A stretch of DNA of 64,000 nt, taken from positions 27,140 to 91,139 of IMG/VR virus record IMGVR_UViG_3300017717_002521, one strand, 5' to 3'. Made by a program: the position numbers and the translations under genes. Origin of the DNA: a virus. Positions 2,404-57,226 of the stretch are shown here, one piece after another. Positions within the stretch are counted from its first letter, which is position 1. The number at the start of each line of letters is the position of its first letter. The notes beneath the pieces are model-generated. The model was not told the DNA's origin, did not search any database, and saw nothing but the letters and a program-made list of their open reading frames with translations.

Positions 2404-4878
2404 ATGAGAAAACTCGTTACAGTGCTGTTAATGTTTTTAGCAGTTGGAGCTTACGCTCAAGAAACGAGTACTGATTCTAAGACCATCTTAGATGTAAACT
2501 TAGAAGAAGTTGTTGTATCGTCTAGAGTTATTGATGTCGCAAAAGAAAGAGAGACACCAATTGCAGTTAGTACGATCTCAGCACAAGAAGTACTCCTTAA
2601 AGTAGGAAACCAAGAGTTTCCAGAAATTATGAACAAGACACCTGGAGTGTATGCTACTAAACAAGGAGGAGGATACGGTGATAGTCGTATTTCTTTAAGA
2701 GGTTTCGATCAGCGTAATACTTCTTTCCTTATTAACGGTCAACCCGTTAATGATATGGAAAATGGTTGGGTTTATTGGTCAAACTGGCAAGGATTGACAG
2801 ACGTGACGTCTAGCATCCAAATCCAACGTGGTCTTGGTGCCACATCGTTAGCAGTTCCTTCAGTCGGTGGAACTGTTTCTATTTTCACTAAGAGTGCAGA
2901 GAAAGCTCAAGGTGGGTCTATTACTCAAATGGTAGGTAACGACGGTTACATTAAAACAACCGCTCTTTACAATACTGGAGTAAATGACAAAGGATGGTCT
3001 TCTTCTTATTTATTGACTAAATGGTCTGGTAACGGATATATTTACAATACTTCAGGAGCTGGTTGGACTTATTTTGCATCTGTTGGTTACACACCAGAAG
3101 GTTCAAAACATAGCCTAAACTTATCAGTTTTAGGTGCTGGACAATGGCATCATCAAAGAGATGTTTGGGTATCTATTAGAGATTACCAGAACTTTGGTAA
3201 AGCCGGTATTGATCAGAGATGGAATACTAACGGTGGAACGTTAAATGGTAGTGAGTATAACTTACGTAGAAACTTCTACAATAAACCTCTTGCTACTCTA
3301 AACTGGGATTGGGATATTTCAGAAAACGTTCAATTAAATACATCTGTATACGGTTCAGCCGGAAGAGGTGGAGGAACAGGTCCTAGAGGTAGAAACTATT
3401 ATGAAGGATCTATCGATATGTTACCTTTCCGTAAGGATCTAACAGAACACTACCTAGAAGATGGTAAAGGAACTAGAAATGCTGATGGTACTATTAACTA
3501 TGACGCAGTAGTTGCTCATAACTCACAATACGAAGTAGGGTCTCATAATGATAAAGATTACGCTAGAAACGTATTAGTACGAAGAGCATCTATGAACTCT
3601 CATAACTGGATTGGAGCTATCTCTAAGCTTAATATCCAGAAAGGTAGTATGAGATATTCATTAGGATTAGATCTTAGGGATTACACAGGTTATCACTACA
3701 GAGCAATGAATGATCTATTAGGTCTTAATCAATATGCTTCTACTGGTAACCAAAACTTAAGTACTCAACTATATAATTCATCTGATTTAATATCAGCTAA
3801 CCCATTTAGAGGTACTAATATTGGTGATAATGAAGCAAAGATTGCTTATTATAATATTGGATTTGTAAAATGGGCTGGATTTAACGGATTAGTAGAATAT
3901 GCTGGTGATAAGATTACTGCAGTACTACAAGCCGGAGCATCTAACCAACAGTTCCAAAGAGAAGATAGATTTGCAAACGTAGATAATCCTATTTCTGATA
4001 AAGCTAACTTAGGTGGTGGATATCTTAAAGGAGGATTAAACTATAACTTTACTGAAAAATCTAACGTATTTGTAAACGCTGGATTTATTGACCGTCAGCC
4101 TTTATTTGACGCAGTATTCCCTAACTTTGGAAATGACGTTAATCCAGACCTACAAAATGAACGTATCGAATCATTTGAGATTGGGTATGGTTATATAGGT
4201 AAGAGATTAAGACTAAATGTTAATGCATATAACACTAACTGGGGTAATAGATTTGTTTCTAGAAGTTTATCTAACCAACAAGGTGTAGATGGTACAGCTC
4301 AGTTTAGAAATATTGATGTAACACATAAAGGTTTCGAAGCTGAAGGTACTTACACAGTAGGAGGTACTAAGCTTAGAGGTATGCTATCTATTGGGGATTG
4401 GACTTATACTAAAGACTTTGAAGCAGAGTTATTTGATGAGAATCAACAATCTATCGGTACTGGTAAACTTTACTTAAAAGGAGCTAAAGTAGGAGATGCT
4501 GCACAAACTACAGCATTATTAGGTATTGATCAGAAGATTGGGTCGAACATTAGAGTTGATCTAGATTACAGATTTGTAGATAACCTATACGCTGACTATA
4601 GTATTACTGATTCAGCTTTTACTTCTCCTGATAATGATGGAGCGTTAAAACTACCTTCATTCGGTTTATTAGATTTAGGAGCTACATTTTATGCTAATAA
4701 TGGATGGTCGTTAAGAGCGAATATTAATAACTTATTAGATGAAACTTATATTGCAGAGTCTAATAGTAATATTCATACAGATGCTGATTCCACTACTTGG
4801 AACGGTGTTGATGTTAGAAATAGTGTTTGGTTCGGCTTCGGTAGAACTTGGAACGTTTCTCTCAAATATAAATTTTAA
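2404..4878 (+). CDS. TonB-dependent outer-membrane receptor
   Basis: Signal peptide AYA|Q, TonB box LEEVVV, plug (TPGV, LRGFD, INGQP, IQIQRG), C-terminal NNLLD...GRTWNVSLKYKF. Confidence 0.92.
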   Translation: MRKLVTVLLMFLAVGAYAQETSTDSKTILDVNLEEVVVSSRVIDVAKERETPIAVSTISAQEVLLKVGNQEFPEIMNKTPGVYATKQGGGYGDSRISLRGFDQRNTSFLINGQPVNDMENGWVYWSNWQGLTDVTSSIQIQRGLGATSLAVPSVGGTVSIFTKSAEKAQGGSITQMVGNDGYIKTTALYNTGVNDKGWSSSYLLTKWSGNGYIYNTSGAGWTYFASVGYTPEGSKHSLNLSVLGAGQWHHQRDVWVSIRDYQNFGKAGIDQRWNTNGGTLNGSEYNLRRNFYNKPLATLNWDWDISENVQLNTSVYGSAGRGGGTGPRGRNYYEGSIDMLPFRKDLTEHYLEDGKGTRNADGTINYDAVVAHNSQYEVGSHNDKDYARNVLVRRASMNSHNWIGAISKLNIQKGSMRYSLGLDLRDYTGYHYRAMNDLLGLNQYASTGNQNLSTQLYNSSDLISANPFRGTNIGDNEAKIAYYNIGFVKWAGFNGLVEYAGDKITAVLQAGASNQQFQREDRFANVDNPISDKANLGGGYLKGGLNYNFTEKSNVFVNAGFIDRQPLFDAVFPNFGNDVNPDLQNERIESFEIGYGYIGKRLRLNVNAYNTNWGNRFVSRSLSNQQGVDGTAQFRNIDVTHKGFEAEGTYTVGGTKLRGMLSIGDWTYTKDFEAELFDENQQSIGTGKLYLKGAKVGDAAQTTALLGIDQKIGSNIRVDLDYRFVDNLYADYSITDSAFTSPDNDGALKLPSFGLLDLGATFYANNGWSLRANINNLLDETYIAESNSNIHTDADSTTWNGVDVRNSVWFGFGRTWNVSLKYKF

Positions 4879-4912: not shown

Positions 4913-5158
4913 ATGGATTGGGATATAGTATTTACGTTTATAATAGTAGGAACGGTTTTATTCTTCTATCAATTTGGACAAGATATTTTTGAGAAAAGTA
5001 AAATGTTCAAACGTCATAAAGCTAAAGGAGAAGATAGATGGAAATGGGCAACTACCCCGCCTTATTTTACTTTTAAAAAAATTTTATATTGGGTATTTCT
5101 AGCTATAGTTTTAACAGTTACCCTATACTTAGGGTTTAAAATAGAAACAGAATTTTAA
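4913..5158 (+). CDS. small two-TM membrane protein
   Basis: two hydrophobic segments. Confidence 0.55.
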   Translation: MDWDIVFTFIIVGTVLFFYQFGQDIFEKSKMFKRHKAKGEDRWKWATTPPYFTFKKILYWVFLAIVLTVTLYLGFKIETEF

Positions 5159-7116: not shown

Positions 7117-7836
7117 ATGAAAAATGCTGTAGTAGTTGTTGATATTAAACAGAAAGGCATACATTCTCTTTTACAGTATAACATAAATGCACTTAAACAA
7201 TATAGTCAACGAACCAGATCTGAATTAATTATTATCAGTTCTAAAATACTTGACCAGAAGTATAATCTTCATAAACAAGCTCCATATCCGTATCTTAGGT
7301 TTGAAAAAAATCAAATTTACCGTCTTTTCAAAGAATATGATCGAATATTAAGATTGGACAGTGATACTATGATAATGCAGAACTGCCCTAATTATTTTGA
7401 TTTAGATCCTAAGAATATGTATGTCACAAGAGAAGATGTTGGAAGTAGAAAAGAACCTAGGTTAAGACAAATAAAAACTATACAATCACAACTGGGTACT
7501 GTAGAAGGCTGGAATAGTTTCTACTTTAATAGCGGTGTCATATTAGCTTCTAGCATACATAAAGAAGCATTTAATTTAGATAATGTTGACCTGTCAAAAG
7601 TAAAAGGTGGACTTCAAGAACAAACGGTTCTTAACTGGCTTACTTTTAAATTAAAATTAAGTATCGTAGATTTAGGTCCTTATTTTAATTTTATTGAATT
7701 TTTTGAAACTGAAAATTTCGGTTTAAGAAAAAACTCCAATATAATACATTATGCTGGTAAAACAAACGATAAAAAAGTAAAAGATTTAAAAAGAGATATA
7801 ACCAACTTTAACAGTAAAAATAAAGAATTAATTTAA
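7117..7836 (+). CDS. glycosyltransferase, GT8-like
   Basis: LDSD, YFNSGV, EQTVLN, IIHYAG. Confidence 0.8.
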   Translation: MKNAVVVVDIKQKGIHSLLQYNINALKQYSQRTRSELIIISSKILDQKYNLHKQAPYPYLRFEKNQIYRLFKEYDRILRLDSDTMIMQNCPNYFDLDPKNMYVTREDVGSRKEPRLRQIKTIQSQLGTVEGWNSFYFNSGVILASSIHKEAFNLDNVDLSKVKGGLQEQTVLNWLTFKLKLSIVDLGPYFNFIEFFETENFGLRKNSNIIHYAGKTNDKKVKDLKRDITNFNSKNKELI

Positions 7837-7837
7837 A

Positions 7838-8530
7838 GTGGATAAAAAATCAATTCTTATTGTTGGCGTTCATAGATCCGGTACAACCTTTTTAGGTGGC
7901 AAACTTGGGAAACAAATAGGAAAGTTTATATCGGAACCTTGGAACTCTTGGGTTCATATTGATTCCTACAAAGCTAGTACCTATCCTATCGATAGTTATA
8001 TCAGTAAATCTGATACTGTTATTAAAACTTTTCCTGATCAATTACCTATTAATTATACAGGGAGTAAGTTAGATTGGTTATTAGAGGTAGTAGAGTATAT
8101 AGGGGTAAGTAGGACTATATTAATTAGTAGAAAAAACTTCAAGGAGCATCTAACAAGTTACACAAACCTAATGTACAGAGTATATAAGCATAGACAGTTT
8201 TATAAACATACTGGAATATTCGACTCCAGCCTAAAACTACCCGTTCATTCTGAATGGAGAGAAGAAGATATTCCAGAATGGTATTTAAATCTTAAGGACG
8301 AGGAGAAAAAAAATAAGAATGACCTTACTAAAAATAGAGATTTGCTATTTAATCTTTCTACTACAATTGATAAGAAAATAACTTGGTATGAGGATTTATT
8401 TGGTGGGGATCGAGAAAAATCTCTAGAGATTATCAAGTCGTGGAATTTTAATATTAACGAAAATAAACTTAATACTGACCTAAATCCTAAGTACAAAAAA
8501 AAGAAATCTAATCGAACTGAAATAATATGA
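7838..8530 (+). CDS. sulfotransferase-like protein
   Basis: GVHRSGTT PAPS loop, EPWN, WYEDL. Confidence 0.7.
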   Translation: MDKKSILIVGVHRSGTTFLGGKLGKQIGKFISEPWNSWVHIDSYKASTYPIDSYISKSDTVIKTFPDQLPINYTGSKLDWLLEVVEYIGVSRTILISRKNFKEHLTSYTNLMYRVYKHRQFYKHTGIFDSSLKLPVHSEWREEDIPEWYLNLKDEEKKNKNDLTKNRDLLFNLSTTIDKKITWYEDLFGGDREKSLEIIKSWNFNINENKLNTDLNPKYKKKKSNRTEII

Positions 8531-8558
8531 ATCAAAATATAAAAAAAATATTTTTAGT

Positions 8559-8588
8559 TTGTAGTTTTAAATTTTATTCTTATATTAA
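8559..8588 (+). promoter_or_regulatory. class 1 promoter (TTG-N19-TATATTAA) for folE
   Basis: matches motif repeated 16 times; spacing as in Bacteroidota -33/-7 promoters. Confidence 0.75.
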
Positions 8589-8594
8589 TAATAA

Positions 8595-8624
8595 TGAGTC
8601 GTAGAACCTCAATAAAAACAAAAG
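8595..8624 (+). ncRNA. candidate preQ1-I riboswitch aptamer in the folE leader
   Basis: TGAG-TCGTAGAAC-CTCA-ATAAAAACAAAAG: short P1, U-C-G-y-A-G loop ending in C, A-rich tail with AAAAC; directly upstream of a preQ pathway gene. Confidence 0.62.
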
Positions 8625-8627
8625 TAA

Positions 8628-9341
8628 ATGCCTAAAAAATTTATAGAAGGAACTGAATTAGTTCGTGCCGGTTTTGCTAACGGTATATCAAGTCAACTAG
8701 CAAAGAAACAACAAACTGAAGGACCTGAAGCAAGGTTAGATTCAGAAGAAAAACAAGTTATAATAGAAAATGCTGCTAAAGCATATGGAGACTTCTTAAC
8801 TGCTCTAGGATGTAATTATAAAGAAGATCCTAACTCTTCAGATACTCCAATGAGAGTAGCAAAAGCATACGTTAACGATTTATGGGCTGGAAGATATAGT
8901 CCACTAGACCGTATTACAGCATTTCCATCAGACGGTTATGACGGTATAGTTCAAGAGAGTAACATACCTGTAACGTCTATGTGTTCTCACCACCATCAAG
9001 CTATTAGAGGTACAGTAAGTATTGCTTATATAGCATCTCAAGATGGTAAAGTAGTAGGTTTATCTAAACTAAATAGAATAGTAGAGCAGTTCGGTAGAAG
9101 AGGTGCTATACAAGAACAGCTGACTGTAGCTATACATAATGCTGTAGATAAGATATGTGAAGGTAACTTAGGAGTAGCAGTACAAGTGAATGCAACTCAT
9201 GCATGTGTATCATGTAGAGGAGTAAAGCATCATAGTGCTTCAATGCAAACAGCTAAACTTACAGGTGCTTTCTTAGATGAAGATTCTGCTAAAGCAGAGT
9301 TCTACAAGAATATAGAATTAGCAAGTATATGCAAACATTAA
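8628..9341 (+). CDS. folE: GTP cyclohydrolase I
   Basis: TPMRVAK, SMCSHHH, GLSKLNR, IQEQLT, HACVSCRGV. Confidence 0.95.
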   Translation: MPKKFIEGTELVRAGFANGISSQLAKKQQTEGPEARLDSEEKQVIIENAAKAYGDFLTALGCNYKEDPNSSDTPMRVAKAYVNDLWAGRYSPLDRITAFPSDGYDGIVQESNIPVTSMCSHHHQAIRGTVSIAYIASQDGKVVGLSKLNRIVEQFGRRGAIQEQLTVAIHNAVDKICEGNLGVAVQVNATHACVSCRGVKHHSASMQTAKLTGAFLDEDSAKAEFYKNIELASICKH

Positions 9342-9345
9342 TATT

Positions 9346-9918
9346 ATGAAAGGTAAACAATTATCACTATTTCCAGAAGAAGCAGATAACGTATGGGTTA
9401 ACGATTACGTACCGTTTGTATCTGAAGTAGAAACATTTAACGAAACATTTAACAAACCGAACAACTATGAACCAACCATCCCATCTGAAAAAGAGTGGAA
9501 ATTCGTTTATAACTTTATCCTCGAAGAACTCGAAGAATATAGAGAAGCTTGCGAACGAGGCGACATTGTGGAAGTTCTGGACGCTTTGTGCGACATTGCT
9601 TATGTTTCCATTGGGAACGGGACTATGTTACATGGCCTTAAAAATAAGATATGGCCGGCATATCAAGAGGTACAAGCTTCAAATATGTCGAAAGCTTGTT
9701 CGACTGAAGAAGAGGCCATACAGAGTGTCAGCAAAAGAAGTAAGGAACAAGGTGAGGCCTGTCATTTTGAGAAGGTTGCGGAGGGACGGTACATTGTCTA
9801 TCGTACAAGAGACAGAAAAGTAATGAAGAGTAATAATTACTTTAGACCAGACTTACAGCAGTTCTTTAGCGGTGATGATATTGTAAGAACAAGACCCCAA
9901 CAACATTCAGGAATATGA
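9346..9918 (+). CDS. MazG-like / PRA-PH-like NTP pyrophosphohydrolase
   Basis: EELEEY, EVLDALCD, EVQASNMSK, KVMKS. Confidence 0.85.
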   Translation: MKGKQLSLFPEEADNVWVNDYVPFVSEVETFNETFNKPNNYEPTIPSEKEWKFVYNFILEELEEYREACERGDIVEVLDALCDIAYVSIGNGTMLHGLKNKIWPAYQEVQASNMSKACSTEEEAIQSVSKRSKEQGEACHFEKVAEGRYIVYRTRDRKVMKSNNYFRPDLQQFFSGDDIVRTRPQQHSGI

Positions 9919-10124
9919 TTAAAATAGAAGATTTTAAAAAAGAATTTAACGGAGAATTTTACGTACCCCTCTCTATCGCTAACCAAGCAGTTAAAGAAGC
10001 TTACCAAAGCAATAAAGAGTATAATCAAATGAACAATAAGTTAGAAGATCTTAATAAACAATTAAATGATGCTATGAAAGAAATAGGAGAAGGGTTTAAA
10101 GATATGAAAAATTTAAAGTTATAA
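9915..10124 (+). CDS. hypothetical coiled-coil protein
   Basis: ORF track, coupled overlap. Confidence 0.55.
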   Translation: MIKIEDFKKEFNGEFYVPLSIANQAVKEAYQSNKEYNQMNNKLEDLNKQLNDAMKEIGEGFKDMKNLKL

Positions 10125-10127
10125 TGT

Positions 10128-10922
10128 ATGATTAAAATAGCTCATGAAGCTCCTATAGATATTTTTGACGAAGTTCAAAGGTTAACTGATTACGATTACG
10201 CTTTAGTTCATTTATTAGAGCAAAATGGTAGATATAGAGATACGTTTGAAAGAGCAGTTAAAAGAGGTAGAGAAGTTATTTTAGATAACTCTATTTTTGA
10301 GTTAGAAGAAGCATTTGAAGCTGATAGATTTGCATTATGGGTTGAAAGATTAAAACCTACTTGGTATATAGTTCCAGATGCATTGGAGAATGCTGAAAAG
10401 ACTATGGAACAAGCACTTGATTGGGTTAAAAGTTATAAAAGTATACCTGGGAAAAAAATAGGTGTTGTTCAAGGTAAAAACTATCACGAGATTGTAGCTT
10501 GTTATAAGTTTATGGACACTAGAGATATTGATATGATAGCTATTTCATTCGATTATTCGTATTATAGTGATTCTATTCCTCATCCTAACAAGTATGTTAG
10601 CTGGATGCTAGGACGTGTTAAGCTACTAGGAGATTTAGAGAGAGACGGTATAATTAATAAAGATAAACCTCATCACTTACTAGGTTGTGGATTACCTCAA
10701 GAATTTAGTTTTTATAAAAATGCTAACTATAAATGGCTCTACTCTTTAGATACTTCTAACCCAGTAGTCCACGGTCTAAAAGGTATAGAGTATGACAGAG
10801 AAGGACTTTGGTCTAAAGAATCTCAAAAGTTACATGAATTAATTAATGTACCTATAGAAGAGATTGATATTGAGAAAGTAACTAGTAATATAGAGAAGTT
10901 TAGATGGCTAACAAATGGATAA
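10128..10922 (+). CDS. dpdA: TGT-fold deazaguanine transglycosylase-like protein (DpdA-like)
   Basis: ILDNS..E, IVPD, IGVVQG, HHLLG, SLDTS TGT-like motifs; que-gene context. Confidence 0.72.
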   Translation: MIKIAHEAPIDIFDEVQRLTDYDYALVHLLEQNGRYRDTFERAVKRGREVILDNSIFELEEAFEADRFALWVERLKPTWYIVPDALENAEKTMEQALDWVKSYKSIPGKKIGVVQGKNYHEIVACYKFMDTRDIDMIAISFDYSYYSDSIPHPNKYVSWMLGRVKLLGDLERDGIINKDKPHHLLGCGLPQEFSFYKNANYKWLYSLDTSNPVVHGLKGIEYDREGLWSKESQKLHELINVPIEEIDIEKVTSNIEKFRWLTNG

Positions 10923-11431
10923 CATTCTTCAGTCAAACTGGAGCTGAGATAGCTGATTTATCTGAAAATATTGGAAGATGGCCTGATATTATTATTACTA
11001 ATAGTAGACCAGACCACTTAAGAACTATAGATCCTAGAATAGTAGAATACGGTTATACTGAAGTACCTAATAAACCTACAGTAAGTGATTTAGATGCTGT
11101 ATTACAAGATAATGCTGTTATAACATTACATGGTTGGTTGAGGATAATGCCTGAAGTAATATGTAATAAGTATTTGATTTATAATGGTCATCCTGGACTT
11201 ATTACTAAATATCCTGAACTTAAGGGTAAAGATCCTCAAGTAAAAGCTCATAAACTTGGACATGAAGTAGCAGGTGCAGTTATACATAAAGTAACAGCAG
11301 GAGTAGATGAAGGTAGGATTATTATGGAGGAATATTTCAATGCTACTCAGTTGGATCTTGATAGTTTATTTCGTATATTAAGAGATAGATCATTGTATAT
11401 GTGGTCTAATCTACTTAAACAGGTTTTATGA
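10904..11431 (+). CDS. PurN-like formyltransferase (DpdN-like)
   Basis: GWLRIM, NGHPGL..YP, IHKV..GVDEG; coupled to the dpdA-like gene. Confidence 0.82.
   Translation: MANKWITFFSQTGAEIADLSENIGRWPDIIITNSRPDHLRTIDPRIVEYGYTEVPNKPTVSDLDAVLQDNAVITLHGWLRIMPEVICNKYLIYNGHPGLITKYPELKGKDPQVKAHKLGHEVAGAVIHKVTAGVDEGRIIMEEYFNATQLDLDSLFRILRDRSLYMWSNLLKQVL
11351..11381 (+). promoter_or_regulatory. class 1 promoter inside formyltransferase 3' end
   Basis: TTG-N20-TATATTAA. Confidence 0.6.
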
Positions 11432-11943
11432 TAAAAAGAATAGCTTTAGTTGGAGCAAGTAGTACTGGTAAGACTACTGTTTTTGAATTACTTAAGAATA
11501 AATTACCTAAGTATGAGTTCGTAAACGAATCTACTCGTAATGTAGCTAAGTACGGATTTCCTATTAATGAGTTTGGTACTGATGCTACTCAACTTGCTAT
11601 TAGTAGCTTTCATTTAGAAGCTTTACTTAAACCTTATAATCTTATTCTAGATAGATGTTATATGGATCTTATAGTCTATACTAATCATATGGATGTTGAT
11701 GATTCTACTAAAGATTATATAGAAGAGACTTGGCATAGAGTAAAAGGAGAGTATACTCATTATATTTATTTTCCTATTGAATTTTAATCTGTAGATGATG
11801 GAGTAAGAAGTGTTAATGAGGATTGGAGAAAAGATATAGATAATGAATTTAAAAAGTATCTTGAGACTGTAAGAAAGCCTTACTTAACTATAACTGGTTC
11901 TCCTATGCAAAGGGTTAACCAAATATTAGAGTTTATAAAATGA
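11428..11943 (+). pseudogene. P-loop kinase-like (AAA_28) gene interrupted by in-frame TAA at 11785-11787
   Basis: GASSTGKTT, LDRC..D; the same frame continues SVDDGVR...ITGSPMQRV to TGA 11941-11943, overlapping the next ATG. Confidence 0.75.
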
Positions 11944-12293
11944 GAGTATGTAATGTCTGTCATGAAGAAAAGAGAGATGTTAAATATAAACATGAAAGTA
12001 AAAAAACATGTATTAAATGCGAAACCAGATGGTGGAGAGTATTCCTCAGAGCTTTAGTTAAGGAACGTAGACTTACACCTATAGAGAGAATAGCTAATAG
12101 AGCAGGGTATATGGGATCAGCTTTTATTATGATGTCTCCTTACTTATTAAAATACGATAATATAGGAGCATACACATATGTTCTAGGAGCCTTACTTACC
12201 ATACCTCAAGTATGGATTGCAAAGCAATGGAATATAGTAGCATTGAATATTAACCTTTTAGTCGGGTATGGACTATACATAATTAATTCTTAA
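11940..12293 (+). CDS. zinc-ribbon plus membrane-domain hypothetical protein
   Basis: CxxC...CxxC followed by hydrophobic helices. Confidence 0.55.
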   Translation: MRVCNVCHEEKRDVKYKHESKKTCIKCETRWWRVFLRALVKERRLTPIERIANRAGYMGSAFIMMSPYLLKYDNIGAYTYVLGALLTIPQVWIAKQWNIVALNINLLVGYGLYIINS

Positions 12294-12295
12294 AT

Positions 12296-13201
12296 ATGAG
12301 TGAAGTTAAAAATTATGAAGCAGTAAAAGAAATTGCTTCTAAACATTTAGGTAAAGTAGGCGGTGATGGTTATAGTGATCAATACAACGCTGAATTATTA
12401 GTTAAAATACCTCGAGTATTAAATCGAGAGGGGTATGGATTAACCGGTAAAGAATTTAAAGGTGTTGATACCTGGAACGCCTATGAAGTATCAGCTATAA
12501 CTACTAAAGGTCAACCCGTTGCTGGGATGTTAAAAATAGTTTGTCCTTCTGATAGTGAATATCATGTAGAGTCAAAATCTATTAAACTATACCTTAATTC
12601 ATTTAATATGACTGAGATTGGAGATACAGCAGCTGATTGTATTACCGGCATAGAAGCTAGAGTAAAAAGAGATTTAGATGAGTTATTGGAAACTATTACT
12701 ACCATAAGCTTTTATGCTTCAGAATTTGAAACTGAACCTCTTTCTTTTGCTAATGATTATAAAGATCTAGGTGAGGAAGTTAACTTAGATTTGATAGACT
12801 TTACTGCATTTAAGTCAGATGCTACTCAATTAGAGGTAAAAGAAGAAGAAGGTGAAATAAAATTTAGATCTAATCTATTAAGGTCTAACTGTAGAGTAAC
12901 TAATCAGCCGGATTGGGGAGATGTATTTATTTATATGAAAGGAAGTAAATTACCTGTAGCTGATTCGTTAGCTAAATATATAGTAAGTCATAGGACAGTT
13001 AGTCATTTTCATGAGGAGATATGCGAAATGATATTTGCTCATCTAAGTGAAAGATTTGAACCTGAGCAATTAATGGTGTCGTGTTTGTATACTCGTAGAG
13101 GAGGAATAGATATTAATCCTATTAGAGCTACTCATAGTTATTTAATACCAGAGTTTTTTACTAACCCCGATTTTACTATTAGAAAAACTTTAAGACAGTA
13201 A
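12296..13201 (+). CDS. queF: NADPH-dependent preQ0 reductase, bimodular type
   Basis: VESKSIKLYLNSF, RSNCRVTNQPDWG, FHEEICE, YTRRGGIDINP. Confidence 0.95.
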   Translation: MSEVKNYEAVKEIASKHLGKVGGDGYSDQYNAELLVKIPRVLNREGYGLTGKEFKGVDTWNAYEVSAITTKGQPVAGMLKIVCPSDSEYHVESKSIKLYLNSFNMTEIGDTAADCITGIEARVKRDLDELLETITTISFYASEFETEPLSFANDYKDLGEEVNLDLIDFTAFKSDATQLEVKEEEGEIKFRSNLLRSNCRVTNQPDWGDVFIYMKGSKLPVADSLAKYIVSHRTVSHFHEEICEMIFAHLSERFEPEQLMVSCLYTRRGGIDINPIRATHSYLIPEFFTNPDFTIRKTLRQ

Positions 13202-56920: not shown

Positions 56921-57209
56921 ATTACATTTTAAAAACCCAGAAGAATTTGAATCTCTTTTTAAATCTAGAGATATTAGAATTACTAATTCAGTTGTAAAAG
57001 GTATTAAAGAAGCTATGCAAAAAAATGCTCGTTCTGCAAAACTATTTGAATTAAGTTTTGAAGGAGCTGAATTGGCTTATGAAATAGCTCTTCCTCAAAA
57101 GGAATGGTTAGGAGCTTTAAAAACAAGTTTAGATCATTATCATAAAAATAATTTAGTTAATGAGCAGATTGATACTTGGGAATTATTAGAAGTAGTTAAA
57201 ACTTGGTAA
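56913..57209 (+). CDS. hypothetical protein
   Basis: ORF track. Confidence 0.55.
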   Translation: MVKLHFKNPEEFESLFKSRDIRITNSVVKGIKEAMQKNARSAKLFELSFEGAELAYEIALPQKEWLGALKTSLDHYHKNNLVNEQIDTWELLEVVKTW

Positions 57210-57226
57210 AAAACTAAGAGATATAG

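Follow-up and report, generated by a model that had tools for sequence, protein, structure and literature searches.

Does the short leader of folE in a Flavobacterium-type phage hold a preQ1-I riboswitch by which the phage controls its own folE, as an initial annotation of this DNA had proposed, and if so, of what kind? The window analyzed here is a 64-kb stretch, bases 27140-91139 of a 91-kb IMG/VR virus record, and positions refer to this window unless another record is named. We found that the leader contains a conserved, covarying RNA motif that is specific to phage 7-deazaguanine genes. From its bases and its position, the element is probably a sensor confined to phages that holds down production of the modified guanine put into phage DNA.

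The folE leader, its twin and their gene neighborhoods

The plus strand reads UGAG-UCGUAGAAC-CUCA-AUAAAAACAAAAG at 8595-8624, followed by UAA and the folE ATG (8628-8630), so that both the string and its end 3 nt before the start codon are exactly as initially annotated. The first stem, P1, is formed by UGAG (8595-8598, +) and CUCA (8608-8611, +), a pairing drawn from covariation and RNAalifold, and is closed by G8598 and C8608, the equivalents of G5 (the pocket floor) and C16 in the T. tengcongensis (Tte) aptamer. The whole loop, UCGUAGAAC (8599-8607, +), has 9 nt with C8607 as its last base, a placement that we confirmed. Its first six bases, UCGUAG (8599-8604, +), comprise L1 and the P2 5' strand and correspond to Tte U6, C7, G8, C9, A10 and G11 (PMC7641330); the remaining AAC (8605-8607, +) is L2, in which a variable base precedes the counterparts of A14 and of the specificity base C15 (C8607). 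Beyond the P1 3' arm the tail AUAAAAACAAAAG (8612-8624, +), read from the sequence, begins with L3, AUAAAAA (8612-8618, +), whose last four A residues correspond to Tte A26-A29, the residues of minor-groove docking and ligand edge readout. It continues with the P2 3' strand CAAA (8619-8622, +), equivalent to Tte C30, A31, A32 and G33, and runs into the linker AGUAA and the folE AUG (8623-8630, +; AUG at 8628-8630).

Folded by itself, the folE leader has a minimum free energy of −2.7 kcal/mol (z 0.66) and thus no stable structure, as expected for an aptamer that needs its ligand and tertiary contacts. Reading of the leader revealed neither a purine run resembling a Shine-Dalgarno (SD) sequence nor a terminator, a scan for sigma-70 promoters and terminators being uninformative here. 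In almost all of the 57 instances of the motif described below, the C30 equivalent lies 5-13 nt from the ATG, a spacing that would place the folded aptamer within the 30S binding site.

The gene that follows, folE (GTP cyclohydrolase I; 8628-9341, +; Pfam PF01227, E 6.6e-42), is the first of its unit and shares 74% nucleotide identity with folE of Flavobacterium phage immuto, the immuto phages being the nearest isolates. Downstream on the same strand are a MazG-like gene (9346-9918; Pfam), DpdA3 (10128-10922; 68% identical to the immuto protein), a DpdN-type formyltransferase (10904-11431; 54% identical to the immuto protein), a P-loop kinase (11428-11787; Pfam) and QueF (12296-13201; Pfam). 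Being co-directional with folE, the genes from 9346 to 13201 may share its transcript. In immuto phage DNA every G is replaced by formyl-preQ1, and the study that reports this makes no mention of a riboswitch (bioRxiv 10.1101/2023.04.13.536721).

A twin of the motif, AGUG-UCGUAGCAC-CACU-UUAAAAACAC, is located upstream of the window (G000:C1:26580-26612, 527-559 nt before window base 1; L134:1501-1533) and scores 43.6 bits with R1, a covariance model that we built from the phage motif family. After 7 nt it is followed by the start codon (ATG) of a 92-aa ORF and then by queD (Pfam PTPS) and queE (208-984, +; Pfam Radical_SAM), the last recognized gene of this second unit. No Pfam family was found for the 92-aa ORF; its counterparts in relatives show little conservation, range from 77 to 107 aa and look membrane-like in some versions. 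The phage queC gene (G000:C1:19026-19703) is without a copy of the motif. Between the two deazaguanine units lie an 824-aa ORF (2404-4878) and a glycosyltransferase family 8 gene (7117-7836; Pfam 6.2e-09).

Upstream of the element we read a promoter-like region (8558-8588, +) consisting of TTTG (8558-8561), a 19-nt spacer and TATATTAA (8581-8588), a pair that resembles the Bacteroidota −33/−7 promoter consensus. From this spacing and the consensus, the mRNA 5' end is predicted at about 8593-8595, so that P1 would start within a few nucleotides of it. In RNA runs, coverage of 7800-9400 is limited to short Logan contigs over parts of it, of which one ends near 8589 and another spans the promoter; such contigs show neither transcript starts nor strand. 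The decamer TTCTTATATT is found seven times in the window, against 1.7 expected, always on the plus strand (5857, 8577, 14463, 24946, 53254, 56570 and 57246), and probably serves as the −7 box of a promoter that recurs in the phage. The motif follows only the folE copy, which, with the distribution described below, marks the element as pathway-specific rather than a general leader signal of the phage.

A covarying motif of phage 7-deazaguanine genes

The immuto folE leader reads GGAG-UCGUAGAAC-CUCC-AUAAAAACAA, with loop and tail identical to those of the window, and the sole change in the stem is a compensatory one, from a U-A to a G-C pair, despite the 74% identity of the coding sequences. 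The motif stands directly 5' of the ATG in most of the best 80 folE loci from IMG/VR, where its stems include UGAG/CUCA, GGAG/CUCC, UGUG/CACA, AGUG/CACU, GGUG/CACC and UAAG/CUUA; the initial annotation had counted a lack of stem or loop conservation in these leaders as part of what would refute its proposal, and the element is indeed conserved. Altogether, 57 distinct instances were collected from IMG/VR relatives.

In 30 distinct aligned instances, 99.1% of the cells of the 4-bp P1 helix are paired and three of its four pairs change on both sides (UA12/GC9/AU7, AU17/UA12 and GC28/AU1). None of 500 shuffles did as well, slid controls reached at most 53%, and RNAalifold predicts the P1 helix unprompted. 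P1 contains no G-U pairs, so that a helix at the level of RNA rather than DNA is argued from strand and position only. Its length is 4 bp in every instance, with A/A or U/U flanks that cannot extend it.

With the R1 model the folE leader scores 49.2 bits, and the next best site in the window 13.6 bits. Searching 0.8 Mb of related 10-kb loci gave 82 matches, all 82 on the gene strand, the weakest at 24.9 bits (E 0.13) with nothing between it and E 5. All of them fall either in the folE leader or in that of the small ORF-queD-queE unit 2-3.6 kb upstream, and no record has more than two copies, including six CheckV-complete genomes of 160-190 kb. Several loci (L183, L185 and L186 at 1845; L188 and L216 at 1935; L194 at 1734; L147 at 2194) have a folE leader in which the promoter is followed by the ATG without the motif and retain the copy before the queD operon, which makes the queD copy the more widely retained of the two. 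The exact loop-plus-tail pattern occurs at 47 loci in IMG/VR, of which 13, in unrelated phages, are stemless, lie within coding sequence and were rejected as chance.

The motif is associated with QueF. Each of the 21 motif-bearing records tested, our own genome among them, encodes QueF, and five of nine motif-free records are without it, including Cellulophaga phages phiST and phi13:1, which make 7-deazaguanine (dDG) and not preQ1 (bioRxiv 10.1101/2023.04.13.536721). The hypergeometric probability of such a split is about 9e-4, a value that ignores shared ancestry. The four motif-free records with QueF comprise two fragments without queD, one record with queD and without the motif, and one variant (G172, locus L203) that is described below.

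Relation to preQ1-I riboswitches

In the Tte aptamer, the ligand is held by pairing with C15 and by contacts of its other edge with U6 and A29, and the A-rich L3 docks into the minor groove of the stem. A base triple joins C7, G11 and C30; G8 pairs non-canonically with A31, as does A10 with A32, the anti-SD/SD interaction is C9-G33, and U12 and A13 flip out (PMC7641330). We took residue roles from that work and the Tte and Bsu aptamer sequences from PMC10639078, and scored conservation of the phage motif on 45 unique aligned rows and that of its tail on the 57 distinct instances. The equivalents of the closing G5-C16 pair, U6, A10, G11, C15 (45/45), A26-A29, C30 and A31 are invariant, C30 being required by the 57-instance descriptor itself, and those of C7 (43/45), G8 (40/45) and A14 (44/45) are nearly so. 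Only the equivalents of C9 (U, A, G or C), U12/A13, A32 and G33 vary freely, and the 1-5 nt before the invariant AAAA vary in both length and sequence. All of the ligand-contacting bases of preQ1-I and its closing G-C floor are therefore present and invariant (45 rows, 57 instances), in line with the initial annotation, which had listed the U6, G11, C15 and A-tract-C30 equivalents for the window. It is the pocket that is conserved, and the SD-pairing and flipped-out parts that vary. Moreover, the motif is associated with preQ1-pathway genes, occurring only before folE and small ORF-queD-queE. A descriptor derived from Tte and Bsu alone, composed after the candidate was known, matches both of these aptamers and has a single match in the window, at 8595, where 0.003 would be expected (a match in 1 of 300 simulated windows).

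In the proposed P2 pseudoknot, the G11-C30 pair is invariant in the R1 family, and covariation therefore cannot test it. For the outer P2 pair, the initial annotation had read C9-G33 as a compensatory U-A pair; that pair exists in the window, but across the family the N9-N33 pair is of standard type in 40 of 57 instances, about the background for an A-rich tail, and shows no clear covariation. A loop variant, UCACAG, in which G8 is changed to A and position 9 is C, is confined to queD copies (L165:1859, L160:2619, L147:2194, L194:1734 and L179:2572). All five of these variants carry the tail CACGAA and hence a Watson-Crick C9-G33 pair as in T. tengcongensis.

The folE leader of L203 (L203:4966-5000; IMGVR_UViG_3300020048_000027) reads AGUG-UUUUAACAC-CACU-AAUAAAAAU, with the tail given as AAUAAAAAUU over 4966-5000. 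Here the equivalents of C7, G11 and C30 have jointly become U, A and U, and those of G8 and A31 are both U, with P1, U6, A10, A14 and C15 kept. The resulting U·A-U would be an isosteric form of the C+·G-C triple, as the Tte structure predicts. The L203 queD leader lacks the hairpin, its queD copy having been lost, and L203, a single lineage, may instead represent a decaying copy. Among the at least 115 loci listed in a search for more copies of this variant, none besides the L203 contig combines a complete stem with a start codon close by, and no further variant was found among relatives of the L203 folE.

Membership in the catalogued family is another matter. The Rfam preQ1-I model RF00522 found nothing in the whole 64-kb window at its gathering threshold (39 bits), and at E≤10 it matched neither 221 nt nor 45 nt of the folE leader, nor 47 nt of the twin, so that the Infernal check suggested in the initial annotation came out negative even on the shortest stretch. 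Other Rfam models gave matches in E-value mode on these 221, 45 and 47 nt (CrcZ, SpR10 and a viral pseudoknot), which we consider to be chance. Two places in our genome reach 16 bits with RF00522 (G000:C1:3726-3759 and window 57186-57223) and were also judged to be chance, since they fall inside coding sequence or at its end, with no que context. P1 has 5-6 bp in all three known preQ1-I types (PMC10622847), and the 3' end of the phage aptamer overlaps neither an SD sequence nor a terminator that could serve as its expression platform. Given the lack of an RF00522 match, the 4-bp P1 and the absence of an SD to sequester, the element is not a catalogued preQ1-I member by the current definition.

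The closest likeness is to type II preQ1-I aptamers (Tte, Bsu queC; RF00522), with which the element shares a hairpin closed by G-C, a loop of the form U-C-G-N-A-G...A-C, an A-rich L3 followed by C-A, and a place in the leader of preQ1-pathway genes adjoining the start codon. It differs from them in its P1 (4 vs 5 bp), L2 (3 vs 4-6 nt) and L3 (7 vs 8-9 nt), in having no SD/anti-SD pair, the C9-G33 equivalent not being conserved, and in drawing no RF00522 score; moreover, it is found in phages of a phylum that does without SD sequences and belongs to a DNA- and not a tRNA-modification pathway. With type III, represented by the E. coli yhhQ leader (PMC10622847), it has in common a compact loop of the 9-nt class and a 3-nt L2 ending in (C)AC. 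A type III 30-mer from which one P1 pair had been removed binds preQ1 at 52 nM (PMC10622847), which demonstrates that so small an aptamer can work. The type III loop, however, is pyrimidine-rich and pairs with the SD sequence GGA, a long variable linker precedes its A-tract, and it controls a transporter in Gammaproteobacteria.

The original identification as a preQ1-I riboswitch thus stands in part. A covarying motif, the pocket bases and a position suited to translational repression agree with it, whereas the RF00522 result, the 4-bp P1 and the C9-G33 pair do not. That the element works like a preQ1-I aptamer is well supported by this pattern of bases, and it is most likely a new, phage-only miniature subtype of preQ1-I that would repress translation.

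A possible feedback mechanism and competing explanations

We consider it probable, though well short of certain, that the folE leader forms a miniature H-type pseudoknot aptamer of ~28 nt (8595-8622), preQ1-I-like minus the SD-pairing part, that exerts feedback on folE. Its architecture would comprise the 4-bp P1 closed by G-C, the 9-nt loop, the 7-nt A-rich L3 and the CA that closes a minimal P2. Free preQ1 (or preQ0) from the phage FolE-QueD-QueE-QueC-QueF pathway would pair with C8607 and be contacted at its other edge by U8599 and by the A that ends the A-tract, lying between the G8598-C8608 floor and a C8600/G8604-C8619 ceiling. With the ligand bound, the A-tract would settle into the minor groove of P1, and mRNA nucleotides −34 to −6 would be gathered into a compact knot at the 30S landing site. 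Bacteroidota ribosomes leave the SD sequence unused, initiation being tuned by leader structure and upstream A residues (PMC6847099). Where SD-independent initiation needs an unstructured, A-rich leader, a folded aptamer would lower initiation at the folE AUG. The twin would do likewise for small ORF-queD-queE, so that the first three steps from GTP would be throttled together, with feedback setting in once accumulation of the base outpaces its insertion into DNA by DpdA3. We infer the identity of the ligand, the pseudoknot and the OFF direction of this switch.

A short hairpin with a conserved loop beside a start codon is also the anatomy of a protein operator, and the motif could be a translational operator or an mRNA-stability hairpin through which a protein of phage or host origin co-regulates both operons, its likeness to preQ1-I being coincidental. 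Covariation in P1 around an invariant loop would fit recognition of that loop by a protein, Rfam sees no riboswitch, and the pseudoknot pair is a predicted one. Such an operator would, however, leave unexplained the coincidence of the 13 conserved unpaired positions with the preQ1 pocket, and of the variable ones with non-pocket positions, as well as the invariant A4-C-A tail at a fixed distance and the concerted change of C7, G11 and C30 in L203. Nor does a candidate RNA-binding gene travel with the motif, the small ORF being poorly conserved and without a Pfam family, and we regard this explanation as unlikely, if worth weighing. An element at the level of DNA, an operator or inverted repeat beside the promoter to which a transcription factor would bind, seems to us scarcely credible. 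The element does lie 7-15 bp downstream of the promoter-like −7 box, and the G-U pairs that would mark an RNA helix are missing from P1, but the arms vary freely and yet keep their complementarity, which protein-DNA recognition would not tolerate. Moreover, the element is asymmetric, with a conserved loop and a one-sided A tail; it is in the sense orientation in 82 of 82 cases, and its distance to the ATG is held at 5-13 nt whereas that to the −7 box varies.

The same fold might also serve another ligand, namely formyl-preQ1, CDG or the guanine freed from DNA by DpdA3. The specificity C together with the edge-reading U and A would recognize only guanine-like faces common to all these bases, and sequence does not tell how the 7-substituent is recognized. 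In immuto-type phages, formyl-preQ1 is the end product and takes the place of every G (bioRxiv 10.1101/2023.04.13.536721), and both L2 and P1 are shorter than in any characterized preQ1-I aptamer (PMC10622847). If guanine were the ligand, the switch would report the progress of genome modification and not a surplus of precursor. A change of ligand is nonetheless quite improbable in our estimate: motif-bearing phages all encode QueF, as would best suit preQ1, the pocket is built from the very residues found in aptamers with a preference for preQ1 or preQ0, and whether formylation takes place on the free base or on DNA was left open in the immuto study (bioRxiv 10.1101/2023.04.13.536721). None of these alternatives explains the pocket-specific conservation as well as a preQ1-I-like aptamer would.

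Riboswitches are rare in phages (PMC9004378), and our literature search found no paper describing this element, a phage preQ1 riboswitch or a riboswitch associated with DpdA. The nearest precedent is that of the glnA RNA riboswitches of marine myophages (PMC9004378), which are likewise carried by phages, are missing from the host lineage and regulate the phage's own genes. Unlike the folE element, they have an unrelated fold and ligand, are recognized by existing models and have no part in control of DNA modification. If ligand binding by the folE element is borne out, it would be the first riboswitch known for a DNA hypermodification pathway, would undercut the smallest natural aptamer known so far, and would represent a metabolite-sensing RNA that gates translation in a phylum that ignores Shine-Dalgarno sequences. 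It would also offer a compact, testable handle on how GTP is budgeted between replication and base synthesis in phages that replace every G. The boldest version of the proposal would be a phage-born, phage-only fourth type of preQ1-I, free of the SD sequence and, at ~28 nt, the smallest natural aptamer, whose ligand might be formyl-preQ1 or guanine expelled by DpdA3, and which would gauge the rewriting of the genome and then shut the pathway. We regard this full combination as a long shot.

Beyond phages, the R1 model gave zero matches in 151 sampled Bacteroidota genomes, among the part of the first-look candidates that was scored, and the single RF00522 match there (25 bits) is antisense inside an 825-aa ORF and was dismissed as chance. 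If ligand binding is borne out, then, with the family models missing the element and the sampled genomes of the host phylum lacking it, phage metagenomes may hold riboswitch types beyond the reach of comparative genomics of bacteria. A strict pattern scan of one genome per species (185,579) returned four loci, three of which were rejected as chance, their arms not being complementary. The other is a 5.9-kb contig (L140; NYWG01000135.1) from a 'Verrucomicrobiales' metagenome-assembled genome that contains both motif copies together with queD, queE and folE and is evidently a fragment of a phage of the motif-bearing group that was binned into a bacterial assembly.
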